From Marsupella aquatica (taxonomy: Eukaryota > Plantae > Marchantiophyta), in contig OZ316891.1 of NCBI GenBank assembly GCA_973895155.1, forward strand, positions 25,109,899 to 25,173,898: a DNA stretch of 64,000 bases, read 5' to 3'. The notes beneath the pieces are model-generated. The model was given only the letters and a program-made list of their open reading frames with translations, was not told where the DNA came from and made no database searches. Made by a program: the position numbers and the translations under genes. How positions within the stretch are numbered: position 1 is the stretch's first letter; each line of letters starts with the position of its first letter. This document shows, piece after piece, positions 6,459 through 64,000 of this stretch.

Positions 6459-7709
6459 TAGTGTTCATGATTAATTGCAAATGAAACAACAGGACCTCGA
6501 GCTTACCTTTTGAACATTGCAAGTTGCAATTGCCATTATGAGTTTGCAAGCCTAATGAATGACGGGTGCATTTCTAGCGAGTGAGCCAATTGGAATTGGA
6601 GAATTTCAACTCCTCTGTAAGTCTCTGATCGCACTCCCTTGTGTGGTATGTATGTCTTGGAATACCTAGATTACATGGTTTATGGGACTACAAATTCACA
6701 ACCAGCTACGTAGTCTCAATGTGATGCATTTTTTGCTCATATGACCTGTATTTTCCATTTGCTGATACAGGAGCGGGAAACTACAAGCTACCTGACATGA
6801 AAGGGACAACCACACTGTGGAATTCCAGATTGCTTAAGAAGCAATTGTTGTAGATTTTAGGGATGCAGCTCCTATACAAAGTATAATCATAAGTTTTTTG
6901 ATTCATTTGTTGATCACAAGCTTGATTGCTGGAGAATAGGATTAGATGCTCAACAGTATTCCAGTGTAGATCATTGATGAAATATTGTATGACACTCAAA
7001 ATGACATTATAAATAATGTGCATTATGATATCCAAAATGAGTCCATCATGTATGACATTCCAAATGAAATTATAAATGATGTGTGTTGTGACATCATTTT
7101 AATGACGCCTTCTCAAGTCATTTCCGTCATTGGAAAATGACATCTTTTATGACTGTCCAAAATGACTAATGAAATACGTCATTTTTTACAGATGAAAATG
7201 ACTAATGAAATACGTCATTTTGGACAGATCCAAAATGTCCAAAATGACAACTAAGTATATCCATGTGTCTATCACACAATGATCCACATGGTGGCTAATG
7301 ATTTGTGAGAGCTTTTGTCATTTTAGACATGTCTGAAATGACAAGAATTTATTGCCCCATGTTGATTATGAAAGATGCCACATGTCTATGGTTCATTTGT
7401 TCAAAATATGGGTCATTCTGGACATGTCTAAAATGACATATTATTTGTTTAGTGGTTGGACACATGGCTTTTTTTTAATTGGTGACGGTGACCGTCAATG
7501 GTGAACGGCACAAGACCATTGATGACACTTTTTTACGTCATTTTGGACTGTTGGTCATTTTGGACCTTTGGTCATTTCTAGTAATTTTGGACAATAACCA
7601 ATGACCATGGGATTTTTGCGTCATTTGTCCGATAGGACCATGACGCATTTGTCCAATGCAACATGTCTGGAAAGACACAAACAAATGTGTCATTGGTTTG
7701 ATGAAAAGA

Positions 7710-10700
7710 TGTCGCGCCCCTAACCCGGGCCTTAAATCCAGTTTAGTGCCATGGCGCGACCTCGACCACCAGTAGGGGTGAGGGTTCGGGCAAGGAGGTG
7801 TGTAGTGACCTCAATTAGCCCTAAGTCGGGCTAAGTCGATATACTTACCGGTATAACACCTGAATAATTTGTACTAGTCATAGGTATATTTGTTTTCCAC
7901 CGCTGGAATATTCCCTCAGTTAGTGACTCGGACTAACTCCCGGCTTGGGGCCTTTCAAGCCATCGACACGATAGGACCTTGTGACATACAATGAGTGGCA
8001 ATCCCTACCATTAGTCCGCACCCGGTACGTCCCTTAAAATAGCGCCTTTACCCAGCCAAAGCATACACACAACACCAGTTACTTGCAGAACATTAGGGGG
8101 AAAAGACTACATTTACTCAGCGAAGCATCAGTTTACATGGTTGACTCGACTTCAAAGGGGGTCAGCAGGCCCAACGGCAGCTGATGCCCAGTCTCTACGA
8201 GGCCCTGCCTCGCACTTGCCCAACAAGCTCGACTTTGGCTCTCACTCCTTGGTGCGCTCTGACCCTGCTCAGGCCGGGACTCCCCGTGCCTTACCTTCCC
8301 TCTGCTGAGATAACTAAGCCTTCTCCCCCTCCCTTAGCGGAAGGGGAAGCCTAAATACAACATTTGCGGAAGAGAACCGGAGGATACTGCCTTCCGGGAT
8401 ACTACCTACTGACTACTGGCCGCGCCGCACTGACCGGTTGACCGTTGACGACAAGGTGCCGACCGAGATGGCAACGGCCAAGCCAACTGACTAATTCCAG
8501 TCTGTTGATGGACTCCATCCTACGTTGGCTGATCCTAACTGATCCGGCCCTAATTCTTCTTACTGCCGCTAATCGGCGCCTAATGACAGTCATTCTGTCA
8601 TTACGCCTAACCAAAAGATGCCGTTGACTTAACTGCTTCGCGCGGCGCCTGCTTCCGCCCTTCGCTAACCACCCCTTACGTGTGTGCAGTGGTCGGACCA
8701 GGGTTGGTCCCCTTGTCGGGACGAGACCTCGAGCCGCCTTGATCAGAGGTGGGCCCAGGTTTTCCCCGCTGGAGGATGAGCAGGGTAATGCGGTCTTGCA
8801 AGGCCTTGTTATCCCGTACCGCCTCCTCCGCCTCATTTGCAGCTTCATCGGCCTCGGTCTGGAGCCGCGTCACTTCCAGATTGAGCTGGTCGATGGAGTT
8901 GCGATGGATCTGGTCCTGTGCTAGCAATTTATCTCGCTCGGCGGAGAGACTAGCCACCTGCTGTGCTGCCTGCAGGAATTGTTTGTTGAGGTCGGTCAGG
9001 CTGGTAACCCGAGCTGAAGATTCTGAGCGTAATTGAAGCACGGTGTCATCCAGCTTCTTGAGTTCGACCTGCGCTCCGCTTAACTCCTGGTTTAGTCCGT
9101 CCCTCTATTCGACGGTGCGGACTAACTCCTCGCGGTGATTTGTTGCCTCCTCCTCGAGGTGTTCTACCAGCATCTGGAGGCGCCCGATCTCATTCCCCTT
9201 CGCCATGAGTTCTTCTTCCAGGCGGTTTACGATCCGTGGTTGGTGCTCTAACATGAAGAAGGTTGGTTGAAAGTACGCCGAGACTTGTTGTCCGATGTAC
9301 GTCGCCAGCTCCCCAGACATAGTCTGGCTAAACTTCTGGACCAGGTCGTAGGCCATGGTCCCCGGGGCTACTTGGTAGTCCTCCATCCTCTGGGGTAGCG
9401 GTGGGTCCTCGGGTGGAGCAACAATCTCCTCTGTAGTCAACGCTGGGGAGGGGAAGATATCTTCAGGTGGTGGAGGGATTGGGGGTGGTTGTACTGCGGG
9501 TAGTGGAGGTTCAACGGAAGGGGGCGGCGGAATTTCCACAGGGGGTGGTGGCGGAGTATTAGTCGGGGCTGCCGGCTCGGGGTTTGCCCGAGGGACGGTA
9601 GTCCGCGTCGTTGGGGTTGCCTCCTCTGAGGCGGGGGCGACGTTACCCGGGGCTGAGGTGGCCATATTCTTTCCTCTGGCCTCCCGCCGTGCCTTGTACC
9701 AGGCGAGGATAATGGCGATATGACTTCCCAAGTACGTCTTCCCCCCAATAGCCATACCACCCTGAGCCCGCTTTAGCTCCCTCGAGAATCTTCGGTAGAA
9801 GAATTGGGCCCAGTTCCATCGTTTGTACTGTTCCACCTGCATGATCGTGCAGAGGGAAATCTCGGATCGCGGCTCAATCATGTGTAGGGTAGTCCGTATG
9901 AAGTTAAGCCGCTCCATACAGGTTAAGTTGGTGCATGCCCCCTGCTTGTATCCGTTGTCCGTCTTACCCTCGGGTTTGAAGTGCCGCGGCGTATACTCCT
10001 TATCCCAAATTCGTATTTCCATCGGCACCGGTCCGGTTGGTAGGCAAAAGATTTGCGTTAACCGATGCTCCGTGAGTGATAAGTCCTGCCCCGAAACCTT
10101 GGTGGTCGATGCGTCAGTGTTGAAATTGGCGATGAACTCACAAATCTCCTTCGACCCGGCGGCGCATGGCCTCCATAGCAAGTGGGCAAACCGCTCCAAC
10201 TGATGCTCCTTGAGATAGTCTGCATGTTCGAGTTTCTTGATCGCGATCCAGACTACTTTGGGGACGCGGATTACCTGTAATAAGTTGGACTTTGGGTTAT
10301 CCAGGGGCCGTCGGGTCTGGTTGGTCGGGGGGTTTTCCGGGGCAGGTGCAGGTGCGGCGTCGGCCCGTGTTGTTGGCTCGGGGGCCGTCGTAGTCCTTGG
10401 CCGCTTACGAGGACGCTATTCGAGTTGCGGACTAGCTCGCTCGGAACCCGAAGAGCACTCCGTGTTGATTACTGGACGGACGTGGGACTGGTTCGGCGGT
10501 ACTCCGGTGGTCATCGGCTGAGGCACTGGTGGTATCGGGGTAGCCATGTCCCAGTTGAAGGCATTGGAGCTTTCCCCGAGGAACGTAAGATTACGCGCCG
10601 CTTCCCGTTGTCTGCTGATGTCTTCCTGGCGCTTTTCGGCTGCGATCTGCTGGTCTAGGTACCCCGGAATCTTGTCAAACTCTGCTTGAGTAAGCCGCTG

Positions 10701-11545
10701 GTTGCCCTTCAGCTTAAAGAACTTCGCTGGAACCTCCAGAATCGCCTCAGCTACCGATCTAAGCCCTTCCTCGCTGAGGTATAGTTCGTTGATGTAGTCT
10801 CACAGCTCGTTGTAGCTGGAATCCCTGGTGGTGGCTATCCTTTCGCAATTAACCAGTGCCACCTTGGTCACCAGCTTTGCGTATCTTCGTTCGTAAGCGG
10901 CTTTCTCGGGGCAAGAGTACCAGTAAGTCTCGGAGAACTTAGCACCTACCTCGCCAAACAAGGTCCAAAATCCCAAGGCTGTGAGGGTCATACTAACCTC
11001 GTAGTCTGGTTTGTTGAGTCCACGTTCCCACCCGGCTGGTCCTCTGTCTCGTGGAGGCCTTGCTCGTCCTGACTAAATCTCGCCACATTCCGCGCTTCTC
11101 CCTCGATAATCTCCTTGTAAAGGTCGACTCGATTCGATCAGAAAGGCGAGGGGATGACAACGTCCGCGAATTCAAAGAAAGGTAGACATGAGCAAATGGC
11201 CCGCAGCACCATCGGCTCCTCTCTTATGGAGGTGCCAGGATGAGCCCGAGCGTGAGAAGGCCAGGCCGTTTTGGTCATTGATAGCGAGCTGAAGTCGGCG
11301 CCTTGGTCCCAGCGTGATTCTTCTAACTGATTTTTACTCCGCTGCCGCCACCGTACCTCGGTCGCGCGTAATAATCCCCTTCCTGAACTCGTAATGATTC
11401 CATCATTTTAACCTACTCCTAATCTAATCATAATGGCAACAGACGGCTATACGTGCTATTCTACACTAGGGCTACGGTCCTAATGACCGTATAAGTCCTA
11501 ATCTACGACCTGGTTTTGGTCAAGTGACACGTTACCCGTGTCACA
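7710..11545 (-). mobile_element. Solo LTR (3836 bp) containing a long decayed ORF
   Basis: TGT...ACA termini and a perfect 5-bp TSD AAAGA (7705-7709 / 11546-11550). No gag, pol, PBS or PPT inside. A near-identical end recurs at 63606. Confidence 0.9.
8676..10991 (-). pseudogene. LTR-encoded ~770-aa protein: N-terminal domain, central conserved domain, Pro-rich linker, coiled coil
   Basis: ORFs 10800-10991, 9105-10199 and 8676-9041 are in one frame, broken only by stops at ~10800, ~10416 and 9105. Homologous to 57052-59680 (DNGY..ERLNF..LHMIEPRSEIS vs DNGF..ERLEF..LHMMEPRGEIS). Confidence 0.8.
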
Positions 11546-11602
11546 AAAGACCATGTCAATAGTCATTGTTACAATCATAAATAACCCTGTTTTCTACTAG
11601 TG

Positions 11603-12540
11603 AGTTGGTCCGCATCTCCAAACAACGGGATGGACTAAACCAGGACTTGCTTAAGGCTCAGGCTGACGTTACGGGACTCGAAGCCACCGTGCTTCAGCTT
11701 CAAGTAGAGTCCTTGGCTTGGGTTAATAGCCTGACGGACCTGAACAACCAGTTTGTTTAGGCTGCCCAGCAGGTCAACGTTATCACCGCCGATCAAGATA
11801 AGCGGTTGGCCCAAAACCAGGCCAACCTTAAGACAATTGGCCAGCTCAACTTGGAGGTGGCACGGCTCCAAAAGGAGATTGACAAAGTCTCCAATGAGGC
11901 AGAGGAAGCAGCGCGGGATAACAAGGCCTTGCAGGAGCAGATTACATTGTTGGTAAGCCAGCGGAGCAGGGCGGGAAACGCCTATGATCAGGGTGGCTCG
12001 AGGCCCCAGCCTGACAAGGGGACAAACCCTAGACCGATAGTGTAACGCGCGTGAGGGGTTTAGCAGTGGGGGCAATCAGGCGACTGCACAGCGCAACCGG
12101 CGGCAAAGGCATCTTTTTGAGTTAGCCATAGTGACAGAATAGCTATCATTAGGCACCAATTAGTGGCATGGTAGGCGAGATTAGGACAAAGTTAGTTAGG
12201 ACCATCCAGGGTAGGATAGGCGACAATCAACAAGCTAAGACAACTGGCAACAAGACTTAGATGTAGCGCTGCGGTTGGCGACCCTTGCCACTGATAGTCA
12301 ACAGGACAATGGGCAGGCGATCAACAACGTCAGTAAGTAGTTAGTTAGGTAGGCTTGGGCCGAGGGAGGTAGCATCTCCCCCGCCCATTGGCAAATAGTA
12401 TTTAGGCTCCCCCTTCTGCTAGTATGGGAGAGATGCTGGTGGCTTATTTCAGTTAGGAAAAGCATGGTGCACGGGAGTCCCGACCTGCAAAGGATCAAAG
12501 AGCACTAAGGAGTGAGAGCCAGAGTTGATCTTGCTAGGAG
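11603..12540 (+). mobile_element. Diverged partial copy of the same protein-coding LTR family (coiled-coil 3' part plus downstream motif)
   Basis: Translation LNLEVARLQ..EAEEAARDNKALQ..DQGGSRPQPDKGTNP matches 8676-9041, and GGGAGTCCCGACC occurs at ~12473. Cut by the CACTA end on the left and another LTR on the right. Confidence 0.8.
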
Positions 12541-14552: not shown

Positions 14553-14574
14553 GTCCTTGGGGCAATTGGATGAG

Positions 14575-25064: not shown

Positions 25065-25363
25065 ATAGGGAATGATCTGACATCCCTTAAAACGACAAAC
25101 TTTGAGGCTCAGCGTTAACGCACCTGTACGTACCAGTTACGGCCAAGAATACCGTTCCGGACAACGTGCGTAGAGAAATCGTATGACCCGGAACGATACT
25201 TATAATGAGAATTGTACCGCAAAGAAGGTACCTAATTGCCAGCAGCCGCCAAGAAGGTACATTTCTGTAATGTGTGGATGTGGTACATTCTGCACGTCGT
25301 GGTCTTGAAAGTCCCATCGTGCGGGCCCACAATCCCTCGTGCGGGCCCGATCCCCTCTTTACC

Positions 25364-37655: not shown

Positions 37656-38207
37656 TCCTCACTCTTCATCATTCACTCCCCATCTCATTCACTCCCTGTT
37701 ATTCCTCACGCATCCTCGCTCTTCCTAGGTCCCCTCCGCTCTTTGTCCCAGTCTTCCAATCACGTTGGCTTTCCTCTCTTCCACTTATTCTTGGCAAGTG
37801 TGGCCGTGTGCCCTGGTTTGCGAAGGTGTTTTGAAGGCTTCACCTTGGCGGCGGTCGAGTCTCGTAGTTTCAAGCTCTGTGCTGGTTGGCAAAGGTGATT
37901 TGAAGGTCTTAGTTTGGTTTGAGCTCGGCAGTGGTCGACTCTCAAAGTTTCAAGCTTTGTGCTGCAAAGGGTGATTTGAAGGTCTCAGTCGGCGGTGGTC
38001 GAATCACTCTCAGTGGGTTGTAGTTTCAAGCGCGGCGCTTCACCCATCTCCGAGGTTGGAAATTTTGTTCACTGCATGACTGTCTACACGATTTGAATGT
38101 ATGTTGCAAGCTTGACATGTCAAAACTTTTGCTCGGCGGGGCTCGCCAAGATGTATGGTTATTGTGAAGTAATTCTTGAATGTTTTCTCATGTAATCTTA
38201 GATCACA

Positions 38208-42453: not shown

Positions 42454-42965
42454 TTTTAATATTGTCCCATAGTATTTCAGCGGACTCGCCGAGATGGCTC
42501 TCCATCTGGGCAAATCCATCTCGGCTTACCTCTCCGAGATGCATGTCGGCCGGCCTAGCCGAGAGGATCGCATCTGGCCCGGGCACTTTGAGATTTACTG
42601 GAAAGTCCCTCTCAGCTGGCCTCTCCGAGATGCATGTCGGCGGGCCTCGCCGAGAGGAACTGCATCTGGCCCGGGCATATTCAGATTTCCAGGCAAGTCC
42701 ATCTCAACAGGCCTCTCTGAGATGCATGTCGGCGGGCCTCGCCCAGATGAATCCCGAGTGGCCTGGCCACGTCAACTTCTATTGGCAAGTCCACGTAGGG
42801 CCTTAGATGCGTCTGGAGGGACAAAAATACATCTTGGCTAGCCTCTCTAAGATCTATCTCGAAAGGCGACTCAATGGATTATCTGGGGTGTCCACATGGG
42901 CTCACTTGCCTCAAATTTGTTCTTGTGATCCGTCTATTTTGGCGCAATACATGATTCGATTTAAG

Positions 42966-44122
42966 TATAACTTAGTAGCAGTTCCCGACAGGACCACTGA
43001 GTCGGCAACCGAGGAATGGGACACACAGGACAGACGACTTGTGAAGCTTGCTTGGGAGGAAGCTTTGGCATTATTCTCTCCGGAGAAGTCAAGCCTACCG
43101 TGCTATGCTGATACGTATCATGAAGAAAGAGTTGCTCATTTTGTGAAAGAGAGAACAAGGAAGACTCTCAAATTTGTCAATGATAGGGCAGAAGAGGCTG
43201 AATCGGATGAGAGTAGCTTGGTAGGAAGTGATAGTGATAGTCTCCAAACTCACCATGCAAGCATAAGTTTGTCAAGCTCCAATTCCGAAGAGTAATTTTT
43301 GGGTGAATTTACCTTCATTGCAGCTCAGAAGCAAACTGAGCCACAACAACCAGTTGACGAGGTAGTGACTGCCCAGCAAGGAGTCAATCAGGGGGTGCCT
43401 GTGCACCAACGACTGAATCAGGGGGTGCCTGCACAACGACATCAACCCGCCATACTTGCGACCATAGTCAAAGAAGCATTGGACTCCAACAGGGACCAAG
43501 ATGAAGTCCTAGTCAGCCTCAGCGACTTAAAATTGAAGAGAAAAGATTTCAAATGCTTGAGGGCAAAAAAATGGCTCACTTGTGACATCATCAATGCTTA
43601 CATTCCTCTATTGGAGCATAGAGCAGAGGTCATTGCAAAACCCAAATGCATGCTTTTGCCCACACATTTTTACAATGTCTTGACGCATCCTGCGTACACC
43701 TTCAACGCAGTGTTGGCATTTGTGAAGGGCATTGACGTCTTTTCATTCGACCTCATTCTAATCCCCATCCACAGGCCAAAACATTGGGTACTAGCTGTGG
43801 TCAATTTTACTTTGCAGCAACTACATTTGCTCGATCCCATTGGAGGCGAAGCATCGGAATGCGACAATTTGGTGAATGTCGTCGGTTTCTCCATGACCTG
43901 TCCCGCTTGCGCAGTTGTCCCCACTTATCGCCATTACAATGGCAACGCATCATCCGCGACGATATTCCAGCCCAACCCGATAGTTACAATTGTGGAGTAT
44001 ATGTCATAATGTACATGGAGCGTCTTTCTAGCGGCTCTGTATTGGCGGTTGACCCTAAACATGTACTGCTTATACGACAAACGATTATTGTAGACCTAAT
44101 CTGCCAGACGATCAGTTTGTAG
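42966..44122 (+). pseudogene. Ulp1/SENP-family C48 peptidase region, possibly the last exon of the ParB-MTase gene
   Basis: WLTCDIINAY...THFY...LILIPIHRPKHWVLAVV...LLDPIG and, after a frameshift at ~43880, PAQPDSYNCGVYV (H-D-Q-C intact). 42807-43295 is in the same frame, separated by one stop. Confidence 0.85.
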
Positions 44123-46455: not shown

Positions 46456-48913
46456 TGTCACGCGATTGACATGGGTCTTAACACCAAAAATGTCACTATG
46501 GGTGCCAAAACCATCTCCTTGTACCTGAGGATCATGAAGGGATGTTGCGAAGGCTGGTAAACACCAATTTATGCCCTTAACACCAGACTATCATAGCAAG
46601 ACTCTATCACACATCACCCAAGCTCAATCCCAAAGAACCAAGGTTGGGGATCAGGTCTGCGCTCATGATAGTTCTGGTGAGAAGGGGTCTTCATATTAGG
46701 CCCGTACACACAGGGCCTAGCACTATGGTGCGCATAGATCTATACGTATGCTTACTGTCATAGGTATGTTTCTATTCCGCCGCCGGAATGTACCCATAAA
46801 CTAGTGACTCCTGACTGATTCCCGGCTTAGGGACTTCTAAGCCATTGCCCCACCACTCTGCCATTCCACTCTCAGCAATCAGAGCTATGACAGTCCTCAC
46901 CCAGCCCGCTTCAATGCACCCTGTACACCTCTCAATGACACTGCTAGTCCCATCATACACTCAGATTGCCTCACACACACACACACATCCATGAGAGAAA
47001 TGAGGCCTGAGAGGAAAACTCAGTTAGATTCAAAGATGTGCACAACAGTTCACTGAGAACACTTGATCCGAACACTAGGCCCGAAGGCTGTCTCCTCCAG
47101 ATTACGACGTGCTTGCCCTGCAAGCCCCATGCTTGCCATGCAAGCTCAATCCTGAACCTGAGCCCGGCTCACTCCAGATTGCGACGGCAGATTGGACTCA
47201 AACCAATCCCGTACTTGCCTTGCAAACTCAATCCTGAACTCAACCTCCTTCACTGCACTTCATTCTTGGGGGCACATACAGATCTCACACCTCCAATTCA
47301 GAACGTCAAGTTACGCATACATAGTTGACTCGACTTCAAAGTTGGTACCAGGCCTAACGGCGATCTACCCCAGACTGCAATGAGGCCCGGCCTCACGCTT
47401 GCCCTACAAGCTCCGCTCTGGCCATAGATCCCTTAGTGCTCTCCACCAGACAAAGGCCGGGACTCCCCATGGATCACGTAGCCTTGCCAGACTGAACTGT
47501 AAATGCTCCTCCTGCTGCCCCTCAATCAATGTCTCAGCCTCCCTAATGTGCTCACCACAAATCAAATTGACATCCTCCCCACAGTTTACAATCACCAATA
47601 CATCACCTATCACCAAGGCTCTGTATCGGGGGAAAAGAACCCAGTTGTGCTACCCACTAGAAAGAGCCACAATCCAGCTCGCAAACCTAGCAACCCGTTG
47701 CTGTGAAGCTTGGCTGATTACTCCCTGAGTAATAGCACAACCAAGCTCTCCCCAACACACAGCGTCCAAGTCCAGCCTTGCTTGCACAGAGCTCCTCCCT
47801 GCTGCTCAGTCTAAGAGAGATCACACAACTGATGTCCCCCCCCCTTGCCTCTACCGGGGGGCTGCTCTATATACTCTCTCATTGAGCCCAAATGGGTGGA
47901 TGCTACGCTGCTAGAGCCCCATCCCAGCCCTAACAGAGCCGCCACTATCTCTAACTACTGAACCCTAACTTGCAGCTTTATTTCTATCTCAAATTGGCTA
48001 TGTACTTTGGATTTGGCCCTCCTCCATGGTTTTTGCGAGCTTGCACCTCCTCTCCTGATTTCTCTATTCAACCATTTGCTGCGTGGATAGCAGCGTTGGA
48101 AGCGGCTTGAGCTCCTCTTTCCAACGAGGTCAATTATAGCCGATTTGGTCAAATACACAGAGAGTTATGCCCCTGCAACCGAGAGGGGGTACTCACTGTT
48201 GCGCTAACCCGAGTTACATAGCTAACCTGAGTTCGGCTAACCTAGCTATCCTATCTAACCCGAGTAGAGCTAACCCGTGGTCTCGGGTTAGGCCGCTACC
48301 CGCTATCCGCTATCCGCTAACCTAGCCTAAGCTGAGCCCGAACCCGAGCTTACCTATGCTAACCTGAGCCCAAGTTTAGGCTAACCCGAGTTAAGTCTAA
48401 CCCGGGATCAATCTAGTCCGAACCCGGGTTAAGCATAAGCTGAAGCCGCGCTGACCTGAGCTAAGCTGAAGCCGTGCTTACTTGAGCTAAGCTGAAGCCG
48501 TGCTGACCTGAGCTAAGCTGAAGCCGTGCTCCCCATAAGCTAAGCCGTGGTCGAGCTTGGGTTAACCCGAAACTGAAGCCGAATCCGCTAATTCCGGCCA
48601 CAAGTTAACCCGTCACACTAATCAGGCCGTATCTTTCTTAATACACCTCTGTTTCTCGAGTGTTTTATATCGATTTTACTCGCCTTGACCAGATCTTTCC
48701 AATGCTCTTTACAAATCCGGATTTGGTGACATATTGAAAGAGATATGGTCATCGACCACCCGCGACATAGCTGTTATTTCCCTACTCTTAACGCCATGAT
48801 TGCCCTTATTCTTGCCATCTTGCTAATTGTTATGCAATATCAATAGCTACTCCTTGCATACAGCAACCTACTTAATCAGATTACAAAATAAGGACCATGT
48901 CATTGGCGTTACA
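46456..48913 (-). mobile_element. Solo LTR (2458 bp), non-coding relative of the ORF-bearing LTRs
   Basis: TGT...ACA termini and 5-bp TSD GTTAG (46451-46455 / 48914-48918). Shares two motif blocks with 7710-11545. Confidence 0.9.
48200..48580. repeat. Degenerate minisatellite inside the LTR
   Basis: Repeated CTAACCCGAG and ~30-bp CTGAGCTAAGCTGAAGCCGTGCT units. Confidence 0.7.
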
Positions 48914-52700: not shown

Positions 52701-53464
52701 AGATCCGACAACATACTGACCACTAAGCTTTGGAGTACCCTGCCATGCCTTAGCATTTGCCTTCTTCTTCCTTTGGAAGTACTCGCAGGACTTGTTCCGA
52801 CATTCAATAAATCCCGTACAGGTAACCTTACCGAATTGCCAAAGTTTTTTTTGGCTGAACGTTTGCGGTAGTTGGAAATATGCGTGTCCAAATGTAGCAA
52901 TCTTTGGCACGGTCCATGTCCCTAAGCCTAGAGCCTTTAGAGAGCATCTTGTCAATGGGTGGCGATTCAAACACAACGTTCCCATTGTACTTAGTTGGCA
53001 GACAGGAGACTTGCTCGTGTCTGAAATCACCCGCTGATATGAACCTCGATAACTCGCTATGACCAGTGGATTTGAGTAACGTATCCATTGCACTCTGCCA
53101 ATACACAACCTCCAATTGGTTGGAGCTTCCCGGAGTCTCACCTTTAACGACAGCATGTTGCGGGACTTTCATCTTCAACGTAGGACTTGGAGTGTGATCT
53201 CCATCTTCACTAGAAGAAATCTTGACAACATCAAATATAACTTGGGGACACTGGACAGTCCTTCATGTTGTCTTACTCGAAGTGAGTACAGAATCCCTGC
53301 GTATAGATGCCAAAACCGTTCACCATCATCCACATTGAACGTTGCAGCATCTTCGATGTCATCACTGGTTCAAGCTCTCAAACAATGCACTCAATATCAT
53401 TCATCTTCAAATCAAATCTCCTGCGAAGGTATCTCTCCCGGACCTGCTTGTACGTGTCTTCCAT
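49760..53464 (-). pseudogene. Second-family GCM-like/MULE/SWIM transposase, frameshifted
   Basis: Fragments collinear with 21214-25064: KVTCTGFIEC..GEHNHP, RPHIFKMTTKGHGS, WVSFDVMQH, DAFHF, ESRHASMK, WFCPNQTC and SWIM PACSCEDF..PCKHLYW. Intron at an equivalent position (~51300-51560). Confidence 0.85.
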
Positions 53465-53829: not shown

Positions 53830-54384
53830 TGTGGTGCGTCCCATGGCTCCCTAAACCCAAGAAACCCCTCTGCACAAGCCGATTCCCGCAGGTTTCGCTC
53901 TTGGCGAGGCCAATTTTGCGGCTTAGCGGCATGGGACGTTGCTAACCTCCTTCTACTACTTTTACTATTAACATTTTTCTCACATATACTGGACAGATCC
54001 TTCATCGGGTCATGAGATACGTAGTCGGCCTCTTCTAGGCCTTCCCTTGTCCTCCTCTCTCGGTTTCCCTTTAGGTATGTTTGGATTCCGCCGCCGGAAT
54101 GATCCCCAACTGGTTTGGGTAAGCCGCTAAGACCTCTCTCAGCTCGTGTGGTGCGCCCCATGGCTCCCTAAACCCAAGAAACCCCCCAGCACAAGCCGAT
54201 TCCCGCAGGTTTCGCGCTTGGCGAGGCTGTTTTTGCGGCTTAGCGGCATGGGACGCTGCTAACCTCTTCCTCTACTACTATTAACATTTTACACACATAT
54301 ACTAGACAGATCCTTCATCGGGTCATGAGATACATAGCCAGCCTAATCTAGGCCTTCCCTTGTCTTCCCCTCCTTCTGGAGATA
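53830..54384 (-). mobile_element. End of another LTR with an internal ~230-bp direct duplication, interrupted by MULE copy 2
   Basis: Starts TGTGG. 53830-54060 is repeated at 54147-54370, and the TTCCGCCGCCGGAA hairpin shared with other LTRs lies at 54086-54099. Confidence 0.55.
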
Positions 54385-55227: not shown

Positions 55228-55957
55228 TCAAATGTCATCACTATGAAGCCCGTACCCACTATCGGGATTGTTGCTCTCCCAACTTGCTACATCGTCACAC
55301 CACAACAATGTGTGTAGCCTGTTCTCCACCCATAGTTTGACCCTTCCAAGCTCATCCTCGTCAAAGAAACTGCCATACAGATCCCTCTCATATCTCTCTG
55401 TCCTCCAAACATAATATGCCACCCAAGACTTCAATGATATAGGTGACATCATTGCGAGGGCATCAATAGGAGGAATTTGATGCAAGAGGACTCGAAACGT
55501 GGACGCGGTTGAGTGTCGAGTCCAATGTCGATTTTCAGATATGTTTTCAACAATGTCCAACAGCACTTTTATGGCTGCCCATCCCTTTGAGTGAGTCATT
55601 AGGAATCTCCATTTCCTACTAACTCTTGACAATACATGCATGTTGTTGATTGCGTTGAATGTAGCATTATCATCTCTGCCATGAGCATTTGCACATTCAA
55701 ATCTGTTTCAAAGTAGAGGCCAAATGTGTCCCTCCATCAGATCATCCGGGAGGCCGGGGATGAGACTCTGCTTTTGGGCTTCCTGACTGCGCAATGGATA
55801 ATGCATAGGCTCCCCCCCAGAACTCCAAGGAGAACTCCATATTGACAACTTATCGGAAAGAGCTATCAATTTCAGCTCAGTAACAGTCATCCTGAACGTC
55901 TCAAGCCGTGCAGCGCACTTCTCATGATAACACCTCTGCGCATTGGATCCTTCCATG
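55228..55957 (-). pseudogene. F-box-like protein A, copy 2 (frameshift at ~55705)
   Basis: MEGSNAQRCYHEKCAARL...LIPGLPDDLMEGHIWPLL / LSRVSRKWRF...NNPDSGYGLHSDDI, closely similar to 18703-19413. Confidence 0.75.
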
Positions 55958-56585
55958 TTGAACAAGAGAATAGTGTCAAGTGGAGACCTCCATGATAAGG
56001 CAACCAAAGAGTGAATAGTGATATGGATGATTGACCTCACAAATTTTGCCCAAAACTTATGGTTTTATTGCTAGGAGCAGATTAACTAAAAAAACATTGT
56101 CTAAATATTATGGGACTGTTCGATATATTACGGGGTTCCTATCTGTTATCCATCTCAGAGAGGGTCTCTGAGATTTTGCGGATTGTGCCTGCCAATTTGT
56201 CAACACAATATAGTACACTTATCTCAGAGACTCTGGCCGACTTCACGAGGACAAAAGTGATGGTAAACGACCTCTCCAAGACTCATCTCAGAGACTCTCT
56301 CCAACATGAGAAGGACAATTGTGTACTGCCATGTATGTTGAAGAGGTCACTAACATAACGAGAACATTGCACTGAGATTCCGCTCAAAAAATTAAAACTT
56401 TTACTATTCAAATTTTTTTGTACAAAATTGTTCTAATTGGTCTATTACACAAAATTGGTCTAATTGTTCTAATTGGTCTATTACACTAATGCAGGCTGAT
56501 ATTTGACATGGCATTCAATGTGGGCAAACAACTTTCACATTGGTGCTCAGTCGATGCCGCTAAAAATTGTCACGATTAACAGGAA

Positions 56586-59500
56586 TGTGACGCCGCCGGT
56601 ACGGCAAGTAATGAGTAATTTGGTCTAAACCGTGCCTAGCACGCGCGTTAGGGGTATCTTAGGCCGCTATGATTAGCATAACGACAGTATTTAGGTAGCC
56701 ATTATGAGTAGGAAATCATTAGTCAATAAGGGGAATTCATGTTTGGGCTGGCGGCGCGTCCCCATTTGCACGCCCGGGTTACGAGCGTGGAGGGGCCCTT
56801 CCTCGGGTCCGTATAACGAACTTTGGGAGGCATCCGTTGACACGCGGTGACTCAGACCGGCGGAGTGGCCGGTACACTACAAGCGTGAACGGTTCAGCCT
56901 ATGGGCAGCGAGGAGATGACAGGGGATTGGCAAGCCCTCAAGGTATAAAGAGGGAACCGGCCCTTTGGAGTGCACCAGTCCATCAGTCCACGCGCCAGCT
57001 TCGATCCCAACTCTCTCGTTCTCTCTAAGTCGCCACTACTATCTTCTCTGAATGTTGCGCACAATCCTCTCCAGTTCGGCCATTCGATTCTGGACGCAGT
57101 TCCTATCTACCGGAAGGCACTTGGCCGACTCATTGAAACACGCCAACCCGTGCCGATACAAAATAGAACGCGAGTACGAGAGAGCCATCCGCCTAGCAGG
57201 ACAACACCACTACATCCTTAACTTTGACTACCCATCCCAAAGTGAGCTTTACCAACCAGCTGAGGTATCTGGGTACTTCTTCAACGGAGACAAATATATC
57301 GGGTTTTGGGAAGCATTGCTTTGGCTTCCGGACGAGGTCTTCAATATCCTGGGGACGATCGACTTGCAACAACATCACTTCGACCACATCCCTGCTCAGG
57401 TTCGGGCTATCATCAACATCAAGTCTAGTACTAACCGTTCGACAAGGTCGTCCGCACTTGTTTTGGAGAACTTCTACCAGCACCTGCAGAGCTTCATGGG
57501 AACTAGACCCGCAACCACCGGCGCCAGCCCGATGGACCCCATACCCGTACCCATACCAATGCAGACTCAGGGTCAGGCTCAGCCTCAACCTCAGCCTAGC
57601 CAACCCCCACCGCCAATCGCCCCGCCAGCAGTACAAGTACGCTCTGTTATCAACGCTGTGGACCTTAGCGACGACGACGAACCTACCCCACCCTTGATCA
57701 GGCGGCCAAGAGGAGCAAGCACTCGGGGGGCCGATACTACATAATCCCCTCCTCGGACCCACGGAGCGGCTCTAGCAGACAACACGGTGATCGTGGCCGC
57801 CCCGGGCCCATTACTAACGGCGGTAGCACTACCTGTGCCCGAAAAAGAGGATGGGGAGGTGTCACCATCCCCGAGCCAGCCACGGGGGAAGAAGAGGAAG
57901 GAACCCACCACTGCATCCGGGTTACCATTGGCCACGGTAGCCGTGGCCAAGGTGACAATGCACCACATGGGGGAAAATGTGCATAACAACATCCTCCATC
58001 CCAAGCATGCGGTGTACCTGAAGACTCAGGGATTTGAGCACCTCACCTCTCTCCCCTGGAACACTTGCAGGTACTACGGGGAGGACATGACAGAATTCGT
58101 CAAGAATTATGACGGCATACGTCAACAGACTCGGCTGCGGGGAAGGAATATGTCCCTCATGGAAGAACGGCTCAAGATGATCTTCGGACTACCCAAAGGT
58201 GACCATCAAGTCAAATCACGGGCTCCCGTGGGCAAGGGAGCCAAGTACCAATCCTCAAGTTTTCCTTCAGAGGGAGCAGTGGACAACGGGTTCGTGATGA
58301 GGACCTGCCTCATGCCCAAGATAGCTGAGCGGCTGGAGTTCCAAAGGTACGCTCTCCACATGATGGAACCCCGGGGGGAGATCTCCGCCGCCCAGGTTAT
58401 CCAGGTCGAGAACTATCGACCCAGGAGGTGGGCGTCGTACTTCGCTAAGAAATTCCATGAAGAGATGGAGCGGCGAAAGAAGACGCTATATATTGGCGGG
58501 AAGGTATATTTTGCTAGCCACATCGAGATCATTCTTGAGTGGTACGCTCAGTTTGATCGACGAACCCTTCCCCGTGTCAACGTTGCAAGGCTGGTCCCCG
58601 CTAGGTGGGTGTTCCCGGCCTTGGAGAGACGGCCCCAACCCAAGGCACGAAGTCCAATGGACACGCAGGCTTCACCCACCCCACCCCCGCAAGTAGCTAT
58701 AGTCGTGACCGAGGAGGTACCGGATGGGTCGGTTATCGCAACCGTAGATGCGATCCAACAGGCCGGGCTAAGTACAGAAGTCGGTACAACGGAGGTCTTA
58801 CTCGAGCCCGGGCCCCCCAATGACCCGGCGATGGCTATTCCGGAGAACCGGACATTGCAGTTGCAGGACACTCCAGCCCCTTCCAACGCGTCACCAAGGC
58901 TGGATGTCACTGCCCCGGCCCCCGCATGTTGACGTCTGCCCATGCCCAACTCCGGACAGGCACAACCTGGACCACCCAGAACTCTTCGTACCGGGCACAT
59001 TTCTGAATGGGCTTCTGGGAGATTTTTCTCATCAAATTGCCCGGGATATCGGGGAGTTCATGGCCCGGAAGGTAGCCTGTTTCTTCAATCAGGAGTTGGT
59101 TGCCGCAGTAAAAGCCGGTCGGGCCCTGTTGGAGGCCCTTCAGAGGATAGAGCGATACCGGGAGGAGTCCGTATACTTAAAGAACGAGGTTGCAGCTCAG
59201 GAGGCGGAGCTTCTGCAACTACGACCCAAGGTCGCAGCCGCCGACGAGTCGTTAGCAAAGGCGCACGCCCTTACCGCCCTAGCCGAGCAGGCCAAAGCAG
59301 GGAATGAGGCCGAGATTTCACGGCTCCGGTCCCAGATTGACAGTTTGAAGAAACAAACTGTCATCTGGCAGAAAGACTTGGAGGAGGCCGAAGAACAAGC
59401 CCAGCGGGACACTACGGAAATAGCCACGCTACAAGCCAAAGTAACGCGGCTTCAGACCAAAGCCAATAAGCAGGACCAATTGGTAGGCAAGCTGACGAGC

Positions 59501-60583
59501 GACGCCCAGCAGCTGGAGGAGGCATGCCAGGAGGCAGCGGAGGAGACGAACGCGGCAAAGCGAGAGAACGAATCTCTGCTAGACCAAGTCCAGCTCCTCA
59601 AGTCGGACAACAACAGGCTTCGCAGACAGCGGGAAGACCGCTCCCACTCGGGCGGCTCTGGCAAGCGTGCCAGACATTAGCGGTGGAGTAGGAATAGAAT
59701 AGGGTTAGGAGTAGCTAAAGTTAGGCTATTGGGACAGGCACCTACCTTAGTTACAGCAGCACTGCCGTGCTGTCTAGCCTGCGTAGATTAGGATCTTCTA
59801 ATAAGACACGGCCATTTTTTGGCCTGACGGTCAGATTAGTTAGGACCTAAGTCAGCGGATCTTCGGGCGGGAGGACACTCCGTTCCCCGGCCCTTAGTAT
59901 TTAGTGCACCCCTCGGTAGAAGCAAGGGGGGGGTTTTTAGTCTCAGAGTTGGACATCCATGGTATGTGCGGGGAGTCCCGACCTCTGGGAATGAAAGAGT
60001 ACCAAGGGGAGGGGGTAGGACTAAGCTCGTTGGGCGAGTGCGGAGCCGGGCTCCGTTGTAGTATACTCTCTCGGCCTTGAACCTATTCATTCCGGAGCTA
60101 TCAGGTCAACCAAGTGTACGCACATGTCCCCTATGTAGTAAAATCCTTTCCCATTATTTCCTTCGTGTAAATCGAGATTGTATGCTTGTGCGCGTGTATG
60201 TGTGTGTGTGAATCTCGTGTATAGGTGACAACGCCGGGCCGAACGCACTACCTGAGTCGTGCACGGGGTGCAGCCTATGGGTATGTGGTTGCGAGCACGG
60301 GTTGAGGACCTGTATCATAGAATCTGGATCGAAGGCGGACAACACGAAGGCTTAGAAGTCCTTAAACCGGGGTTGATCCTGTTATCGACTAAGGTATGTT
60401 CCGGCGGCGGAACACAAACCATACCTAGGAGATGTCCGTATCTAACAGTAGGCGCACTTAGCGCTAGTTTTCGTGAATTAGGTGCATGACGCGCTTCCCT
60501 CCCTGCTCGAACCCTCATTTTTACGAAGGAGATGCCCGTTTAAAGCTGAAGCCTGAGTTACGGCCAAGGCGGATGACGTGACA
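56586..60583 (+). mobile_element. Solo LTR (3998 bp) with a long internal ORF, inserted in F-box-like gene B copy 2
   Basis: TGTGACG...CGTGACA termini and 5-bp TSD AGGAA (56581-56585 / 60584-60588). Removing it restores the host C-terminus ...ERLDNGVPVNRDNF*. Confidence 0.92.
57052..59680 (+). pseudogene. LTR-encoded ~875-aa protein (one stop, one frameshift)
   Basis: 57052-57744 and 57787-58932 are in the same frame, with a shift to 58820-59680 (coiled coil). TATAAA at ~56944 upstream. Homologous along its length to 8676-10991. Confidence 0.8.
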
Positions 60584-61249
60584 AGGAACACCATTATCAA
60601 GTCTTTCTTGAACCTGTTCAATGTACCAGTTATCAACACGAGTCCTTTTCCAAGACTCTACTTGCGCTTGCTCAAGACCATATACGGAGAGGTAGCAATC
60701 CACTTCCTTTGAAGCACATAACAACCAAGAATCGATCCTTTCATTTAAGATACTATCAGACAACCGACTCCAAACATCGATCGGTGGGAACGCTCTCACT
60801 GAATCTCGAAAGAACAAAGGGGTCACTGTAGGCCATCTTACGCGACAAAATGCTATAGCTGTAGTCATTGCAGCCCATAGTATGGAGTTTGTTATCAAAT
60901 GTCTCCATTTCCTGTTGATATGAGCAACTGATCGCACCATCAGGAAGAGAGTCTTCACTGGATGATGACCATCCCAAACTGGATCCAAAACTGCAACACC
61001 TTCGAGCATTGACCAAATCCGGGGCCAGATGTGCAACTCCACAACCTCATCAGGCAACCTTGGAATCAAGTTACTCACTGGAGGGTGATATTGTAGGGGA
61101 TAACGAGGATTCCAAATGTGAGCACGGTCTTGTTCCTTACTAGCCAGAAGCGTCCGCAATTCCAATCTAAGCTTTTGTTGTGTCCTATCAATCAAAAGCT
61201 CACGTTCACCTGCGCCGCGATCCATAGTAAGTTTGTAACAAAATAACAT
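60584..61249 (-). pseudogene. F-box-like protein B, copy 2 (last codons displaced to ~56560-56585 by the LTR)
   Basis: LIPRLPDEVVELHIWPRI...VAHINRKWRHLITNS; strongly similar to 20202-20930. Confidence 0.8.
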
Positions 61250-61374
61250 GCCTAATCTGAGAGCGAGCGGATGGTCTACCCTCCTATTGTGACCCTATCC
61301 ATAGCAAACCCTAAACACTAAACTGACAAGAACAACGGATACATAATATCGGTCACATAAAACGGTCATTTATC

Positions 61375-62760
61375 CTAAACCCTAAACCCTAAACCCTAGG
61401 CCCAAAACAAGTGACCCTATTTGGCTGTTTGGTAAATGTCGGTGAGGGTCTCTGAAATACAATGTTGGTGAGGGTCTCCAAGATACAATGAGGAAGGAAA
61501 CCTATTCATGTCGGCGGAGGTCGTCCAGATCAGACAATACCGGCATTTGATACAAGTTTGCCGACCTCAAAGTCAAGATTGGTTGGTCATTTTTCCTAAA
61601 CCCTAAACCCTAGGCCCAACACAGGTGACCCTATTCAGCTGTTTGGTAAATGTCGGCGAGGGTCTCCAAAATATCAGCGAGGGTCTCAGTAATACAATGT
61701 CTGCGAGGGTCTCCGAGATACAATGAGGAAGGAAACCTGTTCATGTTGGCGGAGGTCGTCGAGATCAGACAATACCGGCATTTGATACAAGTTTGTTGAC
61801 CTCAAAGTCAAGATTGGTTGGTCATTTTTCCTAAACCCTAAACCCTAGGCCCAACACAGGTGACCCTATTCAGCTGTTTGGTAAATGTTGGCGAGGGTCT
61901 CCAAAATATCAGCGAGGGTCTCAGTAATACAATGTCTGCGAGGGTCTCCGAGATACAATGAGGAAGGAAACCTATTCATGTTGGCGGAGGTCGCCGAGAT
62001 TAGACAATACCGGCATTTGATACAAGTTTGTCGACCTCAAAGTCAAGATTGGTTGGTCATTTTTCCTAAACCCTAAACCCTAGGCCCAACACAGGTGACC
62101 CTATTCAGCTGTTTGGTAAATGTCGGCGAGGGTCTCCAAAATACAATGTCGGCGAGGGTCTCCAAAATACCTTGTCAGCGAGGGTCTCAGTAATACAATG
62201 TCGGCGAGGGTCTCCAAAATACCCTGTTAACGAGGGTCTCAGTAATACAATGTTGGCAAGGGTCTCCGAGATACAATGAGGACGGAAACCTGTTCATGTT
62301 GGCGGAGGTCGTCGAGATCAGACAATACCGGCATTTGATACAAGGTTACCGACCTCAGAGTCAAGATTGGTTGGTTAACACATTCATCCATTCATAGGAA
62401 CCGTTCATACATAATATCGGTCACATATAACCGCGTCTTTTTTCCTAAACCCTAAACCCTAGTCCCAAAACAGGTAACCCTATTCGGCTATTTGGTAAAT
62501 GTCGGCGAGGGTCTCCGAAATACAATGTCGGCGATGGTTTCCGAGATACAATGAGGAAGGAAACCCTATTCGGCTATTTGGTAAATATCGGCGAGGGTCT
62601 CCGAAATACAATGTCGGCGATGGTTTCCGAGATACAATGAGGAAGGATACAATGAGGAAGGAAACCCTATTCGGCTATTTGGTAAATGCCGGCGAGGGTC
62701 TTCAAGATACAATGTCGGCGATGGTCTCCAAAATACAATGTCGGCGGAGGTCGCCGAGAT
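61375..62760. repeat. Complex tandem array, 235-bp core unit containing telo-boxes, the family palindrome and the transposase 3' end
   Basis: CTATTCAGCTGTTTGGTAAATG at 61631, 61866 and 62101. Units include CCTAAACCCTAAACCCTAG and GACCTCAAAGTCAAGATTGGTTGG. Confidence 0.85.
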
Positions 62761-63605
62761 CAGACAATACCCGCATTTGATACAAGGTTGCTGACCTCAG
62801 TTAGAGTCAAGATTGGTTGGTTAACACATTGATCCGTGTCAATATTCCTTTTGAAGATGTTTGCAAAGCACCAGTACAAGTGCTTGCACGGGAAGTAGGC
62901 TCTTCCCATAGACTCCCTGTACATGAAATCCTTGCAGGAGCAACTTGGGAAGACACAGATCTATACGCAATGTATTGAAGTTTGGCCCCTACAAGTGTTG
63001 TTCACCATGAGCCTCACGCCTGTAGCATTCCCTATTTTGATTCTCCTCATTGATGTGCACACAATTGCCTCGGTCTTAGAATTACGGATACGTGTGGCAG
63101 CGTACTTGGAGGTGTCTGACCTCCTTCGCCTTGCCTGGCCATTGCGTCGAGTACCATGCTCATTAGGCATTGTAGGATCTATTCGCTCTGGGTATGTGTT
63201 CAAATCCATTATGATGTCGCCAGCACTCACCAATTCATTCATAACATCTTCACCAAAAATGACGTCCACTCCATTGTTGTGCAAGAACAAGACCTCTTCT
63301 TCTGTAAGATTAGTTCCACGAGAGACAGGAAACTTTGAAGGCAGTGGTGGTAAAACACCGGTAATAAATGGCAAAGATGATTTTGTGCAACACTGGTTAT
63401 TTGGGCAAAACCAATACGGATATGGAACACCTGGTTCGTTAAATTTACTCCCAGCCAGCCAACAGATACCGACAATGCCTAATCCGCTTACTTTTAGTCC
63501 TGCCTCTCTGATAAATTGAGCACATACTCCCCGTTCCTTGCCTTTGAATGCACCTCGACAACCGGGACCAATCATTGGGATGCGAGCCAAAAAGAACATG
63601 CTTGG
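62760..63605 (-). pseudogene. 3' part of MULE transposase copy 2 (zf-PARP-like + SWIM), interrupted by an LTR
   Basis: Near-identical to 21214-22060, with SWIM PCKHLYW intact and a stop at 62961. Confidence 0.85.
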
Positions 63606-64000
63606 TGTGACACGGATAACGTGTCACTTGACCGAACCCAGGTCATAGATTAGGACTTATACGGTCATTAGGACCGTAGCCATAGCGTAGAATAGCACGT
63701 ATAGCCGTCAAGTGGCCATTATGATTAGATTAGGAGTAGGTTAAGATAACCAAATAATTACGAGTTCAGGAAAGGGATTATTACGCACGACCGAGGTACG
63801 GTGGCGGCAGCGGAGTAAAAATCAGTTAGAAGAATCACGCTTGGACCGAGGCGCCGACTTCAGCTCGTTATCAATGACCAAACGGCCTGACCTTCTCACG
63901 CTCGGGCTCGTCCTGGCACCCCCATAAGAGAGGAGCCGATGGCACTGCGGGCCATTTGCTCATATTTACCTTTTTGGAATTCGCGGTCGCTGCCATCCAC
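63606..64000 (+). mobile_element. Start of an LTR of the same family as 7710-11545
   Basis: TGTGACACGGATAACGTGTCACTTGACC... is nearly identical to the reverse complement of ~11150-11545. Confidence 0.9.

Follow-up and report, generated by a model that had tools for sequence, protein, structure and literature searches.

A gene with a predicted VANC21-like core inside likely solo LTRs of the liverwort Marsupella aquatica

Two related units of about 4 kb (A and B), each enclosing a long gene between TG...CA ends, were identified in a window of 64,000 nucleotides from the liverwort Marsupella aquatica (contig OZ316891.1, positions 25,109,899 to 25,173,898). The 4-kb unit has integrase-type ends, a 5-bp target-site duplication (TSD), empty sites and many copies, and it lacks terminal repeats. 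The homologous gene inside the units is under purifying selection and is dead in both A and B. We see about an even chance that A and B are solo LTRs of two Gypsy-type families, carrying in U3 a gene selected at the protein level, whose core, predicted to be of the VANC21/PMD/Transposase_32 type, would bind DNA of its own family and counter silencing. The solo-LTR reading is favoured because of the TG...CA ends, the TSDs, the empty sites and the LTR-type promoter and U5 module that are common with an ORF-less relative, unit D.

Units, copies and neighbours

The units and their relatives in the window are the following:
56586..60583, + strand: unit A, likely solo LTR, 3,998 bp, TGTGACG...CGTGACA
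56581..56585, + strand: left TSD of A, AGGAA, evidenced by the sequence, the empty-site joint and a paralogous site
60584..60588, + strand: right TSD of A, AGGAA, read from the sequence
7710..11545, - strand: unit B, likely a solo LTR that belongs to a second family, 3,836 bp, TGTGACA...GCGCGACA
7705..7709 and 11546..11550: TSDs of B, AAAGA, flanking both ends
63606..64000, + strand: unit C, a B-family copy of which the window edge leaves only the 5' end, 91.6% over 395 nt to B 1-394
11602..12538, + strand: fragment F of a B-like unit, with the coiled-coil end, the 3' non-coding part and a TATTTAG box, 66.9% at the DNA level to B 2418-3327
46456..48617, - strand: unit D, ORF-less TG...CA relative with box and hairpin module, whose flanks are not a TSD

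A sequence-only reading had described A and B, at the coordinates given above, as units of about 4 kb with TG...CA ends and 5-bp TSDs, and this was borne out by the sequence. The further copies that it placed at 11603-12540 and from 63606 onward are real and correspond to F and C. The absence of gag and pol was supported by a scan of six ORF pieces, in which no gag or pol family was matched. The DNA of A and B is highly diverged, as had been stated, and aligns in patches only, at 59-71%.

No short true LTRs were found at the unit ends. When the first and last 300-1500 nt of A and B were compared by local alignment, seven of the eight direct-repeat scores fell inside the range of 100 shuffles; the exception was B at 1500 nt, with a score of 34 against a shuffle maximum of 32. 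For terminal inverted repeats (TIRs) the local-alignment scores were 16-22, and none extended beyond about 7 bp in either unit.

Contigs of four public runs were aligned to A at 85% likeness (7,262, 4,550, 10,514 and 318 contigs). Contig cover spanned the whole of A and stepped up inside both ends in all four runs, indicating that A is repeated end to end. The depth in run X1, which is a sum over contigs and not a copy number, was 10,490-331,181 in the 24 bins lying entirely inside A versus 1,658-4,209 in the flanks. The other copies are within about 85-99% of A. In three of the four runs they stop exactly at 60583 and are followed by differing flanks. An empty-site joint (56580>60584, with 5 letters shared) was present in two runs, and an uninterrupted paralogue of the target site lies in the window near 20205-20245.

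Every complete copy with the gene in the window stands as a single unit. Paired LTRs, a PBS, a PPT and gag-pol were not seen for either family in the window, or in the junction contigs at the 3' end of A. None of the four loose-end lines beyond the 3' end of A begins with TGG, as a tRNA-type PBS would (9 junction contigs of 22 aligned). The junction sample is small and filtered, the three junction contigs of X1 representing about 414 of an end depth of about 2,770.

The proteins of the gene gave no match in unit D with tblastn or tblastx. A derivation of F from the LTR-PBS-gag element at 13372-15720 was ruled out: that element has its own 1,162-bp TG...CA LTR, whose DNA matches none of A, B and D. 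In this unrelated neighbouring LTR, which is followed by PBS-like sequence and gag, a TATTTAA lies in sense about 514 nt from the 3' end. A 13-residue tblastx match at 1128-1166 falls inside an unrelated 570-bp array and was discarded as chance. An Rfam scan of the window gave no match at E<=1. Metagenome collections yielded no usable locus, the four motif loci sharing nothing else with the window. No locus was obtained from prokaryote genome and viral contig collections; the viral contigs gave one matching stretch without a locus.

The gene and its protein

The gene and its predicted domains are located as follows:
57052..59680, + strand: gene of A, about 875 codons, interrupted at 57742 (stop) and near 58925 (frameshift)
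8676..10991, - strand: gene of B, 771 codons, with three internal stops at 10802, 10418 and 9107
57052..57441, + strand: N-terminal helical domain (FW...EA..LP..F...G...L), common to relatives, model pLDDT 67.5
57961..58575, + strand: central domain, predicted VANC21-like fold, remote relative of Transposase_32
59090..59640, + strand: coiled-coil C-terminus, limits approximate, with many weak coiled-coil Pfam matches, all below the cut-off

The gene occupies about two thirds of each unit (about 2.3-2.6 kb). One reading frame of about 770-880 codons per unit had been proposed; the sizes agree with this, and the part that did not stand is the intactness of the frames, as both are broken by stops or a frameshift. 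The longest stop-free stretches are 395 aa and 436 aa in units A and B, and both gene copies are pseudogenes. Contigs of other A copies vary in length at the frameshift site near 58925. The idea that every solo LTR stays an expressible gene holds in principle only, because both copies in the window are pseudogenes.

The two proteins align as had been noted, with 28% over 525 columns (E 2e-44), and the N-domain and central motifs previously quoted are present. A dN/dS analysis of the ORF, which had been put forward as a check, revealed purifying selection (dN/dS about 0.2). For B versus F, over 145 codons, the identity by codon position was 0.74/0.79/0.50, with a dN/dS of 0.19 and a pN/pS of 0.35 (bootstrap 0.26-0.46). 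No gap opening was found in this coding part, versus 13 in the adjacent non-coding part, where the identity was flat (0.63/0.66/0.65). The central domains of A and B gave a dN/dS of 0.22, with dS near saturation. Of the 727 contig differences from A, the 40 listed are mostly private to the A copy and were left out of the selection estimate.

The predicted order of the protein is an N-terminal helical domain, a linker containing a cluster of basic residues (A, RGKKRK; B, RPRKRPR), a VANC21-like domain, a Pro-rich linker and a coiled coil. A search of 1.84 billion representatives gave 68 relatives at E<=0.001, among them a stop-free protein of 906 aa that combines the N-domain, the core and the coiled coil. 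An organism name was attached to 8 of the 20 relatives looked up, and in all eight it was Calypogeia fissa.

The central domain was modelled with a pLDDT of 94.5 and a pTM of 0.90. In the structure comparison that had been suggested, VANC21 ranked first in two programs. The match had a Z of 7.8 and an rmsd of 4.0, with 192 of 205 residues aligned, and the next one had a Z of 2.6. Foldseek gave a non-significant E of 0.34 (prob 0.47, TMq 0.43), and the identity to VANC21 was 10-11%. No sequence match to VANC21 or DUF1985 was found for the window proteins or their relatives, and Pfam gave no match in either globular domain of the window proteins. Transposase_32 (PF20167) was matched by 3 of 39 relatives (E 1.6e-7 to 0.006), which are the most distant ones; the best relatives scored 30.8-33.5 bits, under the Pfam gathering score of 45 bits. 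Atlas matches of two relatives to Transposase_32, ATHILA, DUF1985 and PMD clusters (scores 0.83-0.86) are taken as leads only. The structure search with the N-terminal domain returned generic helical bundles without an outlier (best Z 5.4), which does not imply a novel fold. A viral structure library gave no structural match at E<=0.001.

These comparisons point to a core predicted to be of the VANC21/PMD/Transposase_32 type. A shared VANC21-type fold, itself predicted here, does not show a function. The gene would likely help its family to evade host silencing, because the core is predicted to fold like the anti-silencing protein VANC21.

Non-coding parts and proposed mechanism

The following elements were recognized in the non-coding parts:
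56944..56949, + strand: TATAAA, then a CT-rich leader; likely gene promoter; CATAAG stands at the corresponding position of B and C
59898..59933, + strand: TAT[TA]TAG box and C-rich/G-rich stretch; likely LTR promoter and U3/R boundary
8351..8357, - strand: B copy of the TATTTAG box
60171..60210, + strand: TG-richest 40-mer of unit A; likely polyadenylation downstream element
60345..60430, + strand: conserved two-hairpin module TTCCG-GCGG-CGGAA, likely in U5, about 185 nt from the 3' end

Units B and C have no canonical TATA ahead of the gene. The TAT[TA]TAG box is conserved in all four homologous units (A, B, F and D) and lies 650-690 nt from the unit 3' end; the TG-rich stretch trails it by about 270 nt, in the sense of the gene, in A and B. 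Judged by the sequence, the box at 59898 is more likely the promoter of the genomic RNA than the TATAAA at 56944, which rather resembles a promoter of the gene itself. The position of the TATA-like box near the 3' end suggests that the gene sits in U3, as sag does in MMTV. This placement is a qualified one because the box reads TATA-like on either strand.

In the hairpin module, both-side changes were found in 4 of 13 predicted pairs, from four sequences only. The 5' non-coding parts have a CpG o/e of 1.0-1.2 versus 0.68 for the window, a weak indication that young age or a promoter island would explain as well. Tandem arrays were not found in the non-coding parts of A, and B has one 19-bp row. 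No 5-7-mer was enriched in these parts, the top counts being inside the range of 60 shuffles. As regards a self-priming PBS, the post-box stretch ranked fourth among the duplex sites with the X1 flank and second with the X3 flank, and was outside the top six with X2.

The following mechanism can be proposed. A promoter of its own, close to the 5' end of U3, would drive the gene. Genomic transcripts would begin past the TATTTAG box, which lies 650-690 nt from the 3' end, and a poly(A) site immediately ahead of the TG-rich stretch would serve both RNAs. Each reverse transcription would then copy the gene from the 3' LTR into both LTRs, and the gene would outlive LTR-LTR recombination. In the weakest step, young solo LTRs might supply the protein in trans, keeping the family unmethylated or active. 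The wider proposal, that a sequence-specific anti-silencing gene of the VANC type was moved into U3 in a liverwort retrotransposon lineage, making each LTR or young solo LTR a self-contained unit that de-silences its family in trans, is advanced tentatively.

Alternative readings and known systems

The same anatomy could serve another protein job, such as an LTR transcriptional activator, an integration-guiding chromatin tether or a coiled-coil particle-associated scaffold, a possibility that we consider rather doubtful yet worth retaining. PMD proteins share this fold, and according to passages of two sources they have silencing or anti-Polycomb roles in Arabidopsis, unlike VANC (PMC13547354; bioRxiv 2024.09.27.615353). 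Retrotransposon extra ORFs are described without known functions in part of a review (PMC7264820), and VANC-like target arrays were not found in the non-coding parts. However, the sole solved structural match is a DNA-bound, sequence-specific anti-silencing protein, and the elevated CpG o/e of the 5' non-coding parts weakly argues in the same direction. It is unlikely that the orientation is the opposite one, with the genomic RNA running against the gene and the gene lying antisense in an expanded R/U5 of the solo LTRs. On the other strand the box reads CTAAATA or CTATATA, and two loose-end lines past 60583 open with a pyrimidine run (10 of 14 first letters alike between X1 and X3), which would be a minus-strand purine tract before TG. 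Antisense extra ORFs are reported as common in Tat/Retand elements in a section of PMC7264820. Nevertheless, these loose-end lines are mixtures of three contigs (agreement 0.82 and 0.59), in A and B the TG-rich stretch comes after the box when read in the sense of the gene, the neighbouring PBS-bearing LTR has its TATTTAA box in sense, and a strong-stop DNA of >3 kb would be required.

That the 4-kb unit is the mobile element itself, a single-LTR, gene-bearing, non-autonomous element using a foreign integrase and having no full-length parent, appears quite improbable. The single state of every complete gene-bearing copy in the window, together with the lack of a PBS in the nine junction contigs, is consistent with it. 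However, that sample is small and filtered, TIRs are absent beyond about 7 bp, and no reverse-transcription route is known for a unit without PBS and PPT. Least of all do we expect the units to be two-LTR elements of the TRIM/LARD type that lost internal sequence, with the gene between a pair of short LTRs. Such a layout would agree with extra ORFs being usually internal, as portions of two reviews indicate (PMC6317226; PMC7264820). Against it, A shows no terminal direct repeat above shuffles at four lengths, though it is about 85-99% to other copies, and no PBS was noticed after the first few hundred bases.

Returning to the reading of A and B as solo LTRs with an anti-silencing gene, plant LTRs are treated as non-coding, and extra ORFs as internal, in the relevant parts of reviews (PMC7264820; PMC6317226). 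A gene of about 800 codons in a plant LTR would make a solo LTR a possible gene, beyond a promoter remnant, and LTR-masking or gene-calling tools would mis-annotate it. Databases already contain relatives, entered as unnamed proteins of Calypogeia fissa. From the predicted VANC21-like core, a function can be proposed and tested for a class of accessory ORFs in retrotransposons. If true, transposon anti-silencing would extend to LTR elements and to bryophytes, VANC-type anti-silencing would have a much greater age and wider distribution than dicot Mutator elements, and the host's main route for removing LTR elements would leave a counter-defence gene behind. Interest in proteins with sequence-specific demethylating activity also extends to their use as epigenome tools, as a passage of PMC5735166 points out. 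A literature search by literal phrases, covering papers outside subscription, found none on plant-LTR genes or on VANC-like proteins of liverwort retrotransposons; the supplements of PMC6317226 and PMC13547354 may list LTR-overlapping ORFs.

The extra ORFs of non-chromovirus Ty3/gypsy elements comprise, in the sections concerned of three papers, Athila ORF-1 (PF03078), Transposase_32 (PF20167) and PMD (PF10536) (PMC6317226; PMC7264820; PMC11728184). Like the gene of A and B, these are accessory genes of LTR elements with a globular domain and a coiled coil. As described there, their place is either the stretch from the LTR to gag or that from pol to the 3' LTR, whereas the gene of A and B lies inside the TG...CA unit. 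The A and B proteins also differ in falling below every Pfam cut-off and in having an additional N-terminal helical domain.

VANC21 is a protein of Arabidopsis VANDAL21 (PDB 9LNK/9LNJ; PMC5735166, in part). PMD proteins are described as structurally like VANC, and coiled coils are mentioned for VANC21 and the Athila domain, in parts of PMC13547354 and bioRxiv 2024.09.27.615353. The likeness of the A and B proteins to VANC21 lies in the predicted central fold and also in the conserved core, the variable linkers and the coiled coil. VANC is called dicot-specific in a passage of PMC13547354, whereas A and B come from a liverwort. Its carriers are VANDAL Mutator-like DNA transposons, in contrast to a carrier with TG...CA ends and a 5-bp TSD. 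VANC targets are often tandem arrays, and none such were found in the non-coding parts of A and B.

The textbook LTR-borne gene is MMTV sag. In betaretroviruses of the MMTV type, according to parts of PMC4667437, sag lies in the LTR, has an internal U3 promoter and is kept in solo LTRs. Its protein makes betaretrovirus LTRs alignable (PMC4667437, same parts), and likewise the protein of A and B. In contrast, MMTV sag belongs to an animal retrovirus and encodes an unrelated immune-modulating protein, while A and B represent a plant element whose gene of about 2.3-2.6 kb would fill about two thirds of the LTR.

Boundaries and copies of the units

Boundaries of units A and B and of their genes
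56586-60583, plus strand, unit A, starting with TGTGACG, ending with CGTGACA and having AGGAA on either side
57052-59680, gene of A, about 875 codons, interrupted at 57742 (stop) and near 58925 (frameshift)
7710-11545, minus strand, unit B, having AAAGA on either side
10991-8676, gene of B, 771 codons, with three stops

A and B represent an integrase-type unit that is repeated and contains a selected gene. The flanking duplications bear out the limits proposed in the sequence-only reading, and the extra copies noticed there proved to be genuine B-type copies, namely C (63606 onward, the 5' end of a copy at the window edge) and the fragment F (11602-12538). The first and last 300, 600, 1000 and 1500 nt of A and B were compared, with 100 shuffles for reference. 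No terminal repeats were found: seven of the eight direct tests were no better than the shuffles, the sole exception being B at 1500 nt (score 34, shuffle maximum 32). The short true LTRs at the unit ends, which the earlier reading had named as the case against it, were thus absent.

Words of A were present in six public runs from four organisms. In four runs, the contigs together covering the whole of A numbered 7,262, 4,550, 10,514 and 318, and depth, which is a sum over contigs and not a copy number, stepped at both ends of the unit. The empty site was observed in two of these four runs, with a joint spanning exactly the unit and five letters shared; an uninterrupted paralogous site lies within the window, near 20205-20245. 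At the 3' end, 22 contigs aligned to an 83-base stretch, and nine of them (three of the four runs) extended beyond 60583/60584 into other sequence, which confirms this boundary. None of four loose-end lines beyond it started with TGG, a small and filtered sample by which a primer binding site (PBS) is neither shown nor excluded. It is very probable that the units are solo LTRs.

The encoded protein

Each unit had been credited with one reading frame. The lengths held, whereas intactness did not, both genes being broken by stops or a frameshift. Contigs from other copies vary in length at the frameshift of A, so it is likely private to this copy. The A and B proteins (X at stops) are 28% identical (E 2e-44) and their DNA matches in patches only, as anticipated from the sequence alone.

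The suggested dN/dS analysis revealed purifying selection. Over 145 coiled-coil codons of B and F, identity by codon position was 0.74/0.79/0.50, with dN/dS of 0.19 and zero gap openings; the adjoining non-coding DNA was flat (0.63/0.66/0.65, 13 gap openings). For the central domain (core) of A and B, dN/dS was 0.22 in a protein-guided alignment with dS near saturation. The signal was weaker in the N-terminal helical domain (pN/pS 0.80, interval up to 1.01). Selection acted during the active history of the families, not on the present copies.

A central-domain profile built from two sequences matched 68 proteins (E<=0.001) among 1.84 billion representatives. Organism names were found for 8 of the 20 relatives looked up, all Calypogeia fissa; the others were Logan, ENA or JGI records. 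On this basis a liverwort is the likely host. Several of the proteins were also matched by the N-domain profile, and a stop-free relative of 906 aa has the same succession of N-domain, core and coiled coil. No Pfam family matched either globular domain of the window proteins. Transposase_32 was matched by 3 of 39 relatives, all below cut-off, and Atlas gave Transposase_32, ATHILA, DUF1985 and PMD for two relatives, as leads only (scores 0.83-0.86).

The core was modelled from 35 sequences (pLDDT 94.5). Among 48,161 chains, VIA-align ranked VANC21-DNA (9LNK) first, with Z 7.8, rmsd 4.0, 192 of 205 residues and 11% identity (runner-up Z 2.6); Foldseek likewise placed VANC21 first, but at E 0.34. 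A VANC21-like fold is therefore quite probable for the predicted core. In published work, VANC and the PMD protein MAIN are structurally homologous, VANC and the Athila domain multimerise via a coiled coil (PMC13547354), PMD-C is tied to VANC's DUF1985 domain and retrotransposons are the source of PMD-A genes (preprint, 10.1101/2024.09.27.615353), and Transposase_32 is described as an Athila ORF1 relative (PMC11728184). Since these families are interrelated in print, the core likely belongs to one VANC/PMD/Athila-ORF superfamily. Membership in VANC itself was rejected because the core had no sequence match to VANC21, the non-coding parts of A and B had no VANC-type target arrays, and, unlike VANC, the protein is carried by a different element type.

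Proposed layout of the probable LTR, and neighbouring elements

A TAT[TA]TAG box with a C-rich/G-rich stretch after it is conserved in A (at 59898, 686 nt from the 3' end), in B (about 648 nt from the 3' end), in F and in D, the relative without an ORF. The TG-richest 40-mer of both A and B lies about 270 nt beyond it. Four places have a conserved two-hairpin module, which lies about 185 nt from the end; 4 of its 13 pairs are changed on both sides, which in four sequences is suggestive only. In an unrelated LTR of the window that precedes a PBS-like sequence and gag, TATTTAA lies about 514 nt from the end. Judging from these motifs, the simplest reading would be U3 (gene with its own promoter), box, an R region some 250 nt long, poly(A) site and U5, with TATAAA at 56944 as the putative gene promoter in A. 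The box is TATA-like on either strand and the flanks beyond the 3' end of A are pyrimidine-rich in two runs, so that the U3 placement can only be inferred; both observations would also suit LTRs in reverse orientation, which we consider improbable.

Neighbouring elements
11584-11602, minus strand, CACTAGTAG, cutting fragment F
13372-15720, plus strand, ordinary truncated LTR element: LTR of 1,162 bp (TGTCGCGA...GCGACA), TATTTAA box at 14020, AATAAA, PBS-like TGGCAACCATACTGGGGA from 14535, then degraded gag, whose CX2CX4HX4C knuckle lies at 15421
17583-18510, 25386-26317, 61381-62778 and further scattered sites, tandem repeats of 37, 158, 235 and 26 bp, each built around a GGCGAGGGTCTCCGAGAT-like motif (one family has 47 copies)
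18703-25136 and 55228-63605, larger repeat present twice (78-90%), with telomere-like CCCTAAA runs and ORFs of 755 and 492 aa, neither with a Pfam match; more distant relative at 49900-53200
33595-44009, plus strand, large DNA-transposon-like gene cluster that includes a Ulp1-type protease domain (PF02902, E 5.8e-11) and, below cut-off, a trace of Transposase_24 (E 1.6e-4)
46456-48617, minus strand, D, 2.16 kb, TG...CA, ORF-less, with promoter box and hairpin module as in A and B
53830-54271, pair of copies at a distance of 317 bp, 92% over 125 nt
54099, minus strand, hairpin module TTCCGGCGGCGGAA, outside any definable TG...CA unit

The PBS-like sequence resembles Tat/Athila tRNA-type sites. 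CACTAGTAG looks like the end of a CACTA transposon, and the element bearing it seems to harbour unit B as an insertion. A and C are inserted into the larger repeat, whose 492-aa ORF contains a SWIM-finger-like CxC...CxY motif. The flanks of D (TTAG/CTAA) are reverse complements and not a target-site duplication; TTAG also precedes the LTR at 13372. The GGCGAGGGTCTCCGAGAT-like arrays are reminiscent of the target arrays for VANC in DNA transposons; they may mark, in a different element family, a motif to which a protein binds.

Proposed mechanism and known systems

The gene would be carried in U3, each cycle would copy it into both LTRs, and it would survive recombination down to a solo LTR. 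Its product is predicted to contain a VANC21-like domain together with a cluster of basic residues and a coiled coil. In the weakest step, drawn from VANC, this protein may bind DNA of its family and counter silencing in trans. Taken as a whole, the proposal has about an even chance of being right; that the solo LTRs act as dispersed anti-silencing genes is more doubtful.

The units are a real feature, and solo LTRs and VANC/PMD/Athila-ORF-type accessory ORFs are both known. For their combination, an accessory ORF inside the LTR, no plant description was found in literal searches of largely open literature, which is weak evidence. Among the elements named in a liverwort genome paper are Athila, Phygy, Tekay and Tat, and its available text does not describe gene-bearing LTRs of the A/B type (PMC12885004). 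The window supplies two families that have diverged deeply, a relative lacking the ORF, and evidence for the U3 placement.

The MMTV-type sag is described as an LTR-borne gene, copied and retained in the solo LTR (PMC4667437), and VANC binds the DNA of its own family and counters silencing in trans (PMC5735166). The gene described here would resemble sag in lying in U3 and being kept after solo-LTR formation, and its predicted protein may, by analogy, resemble VANC in family-DNA binding and anti-silencing in trans.
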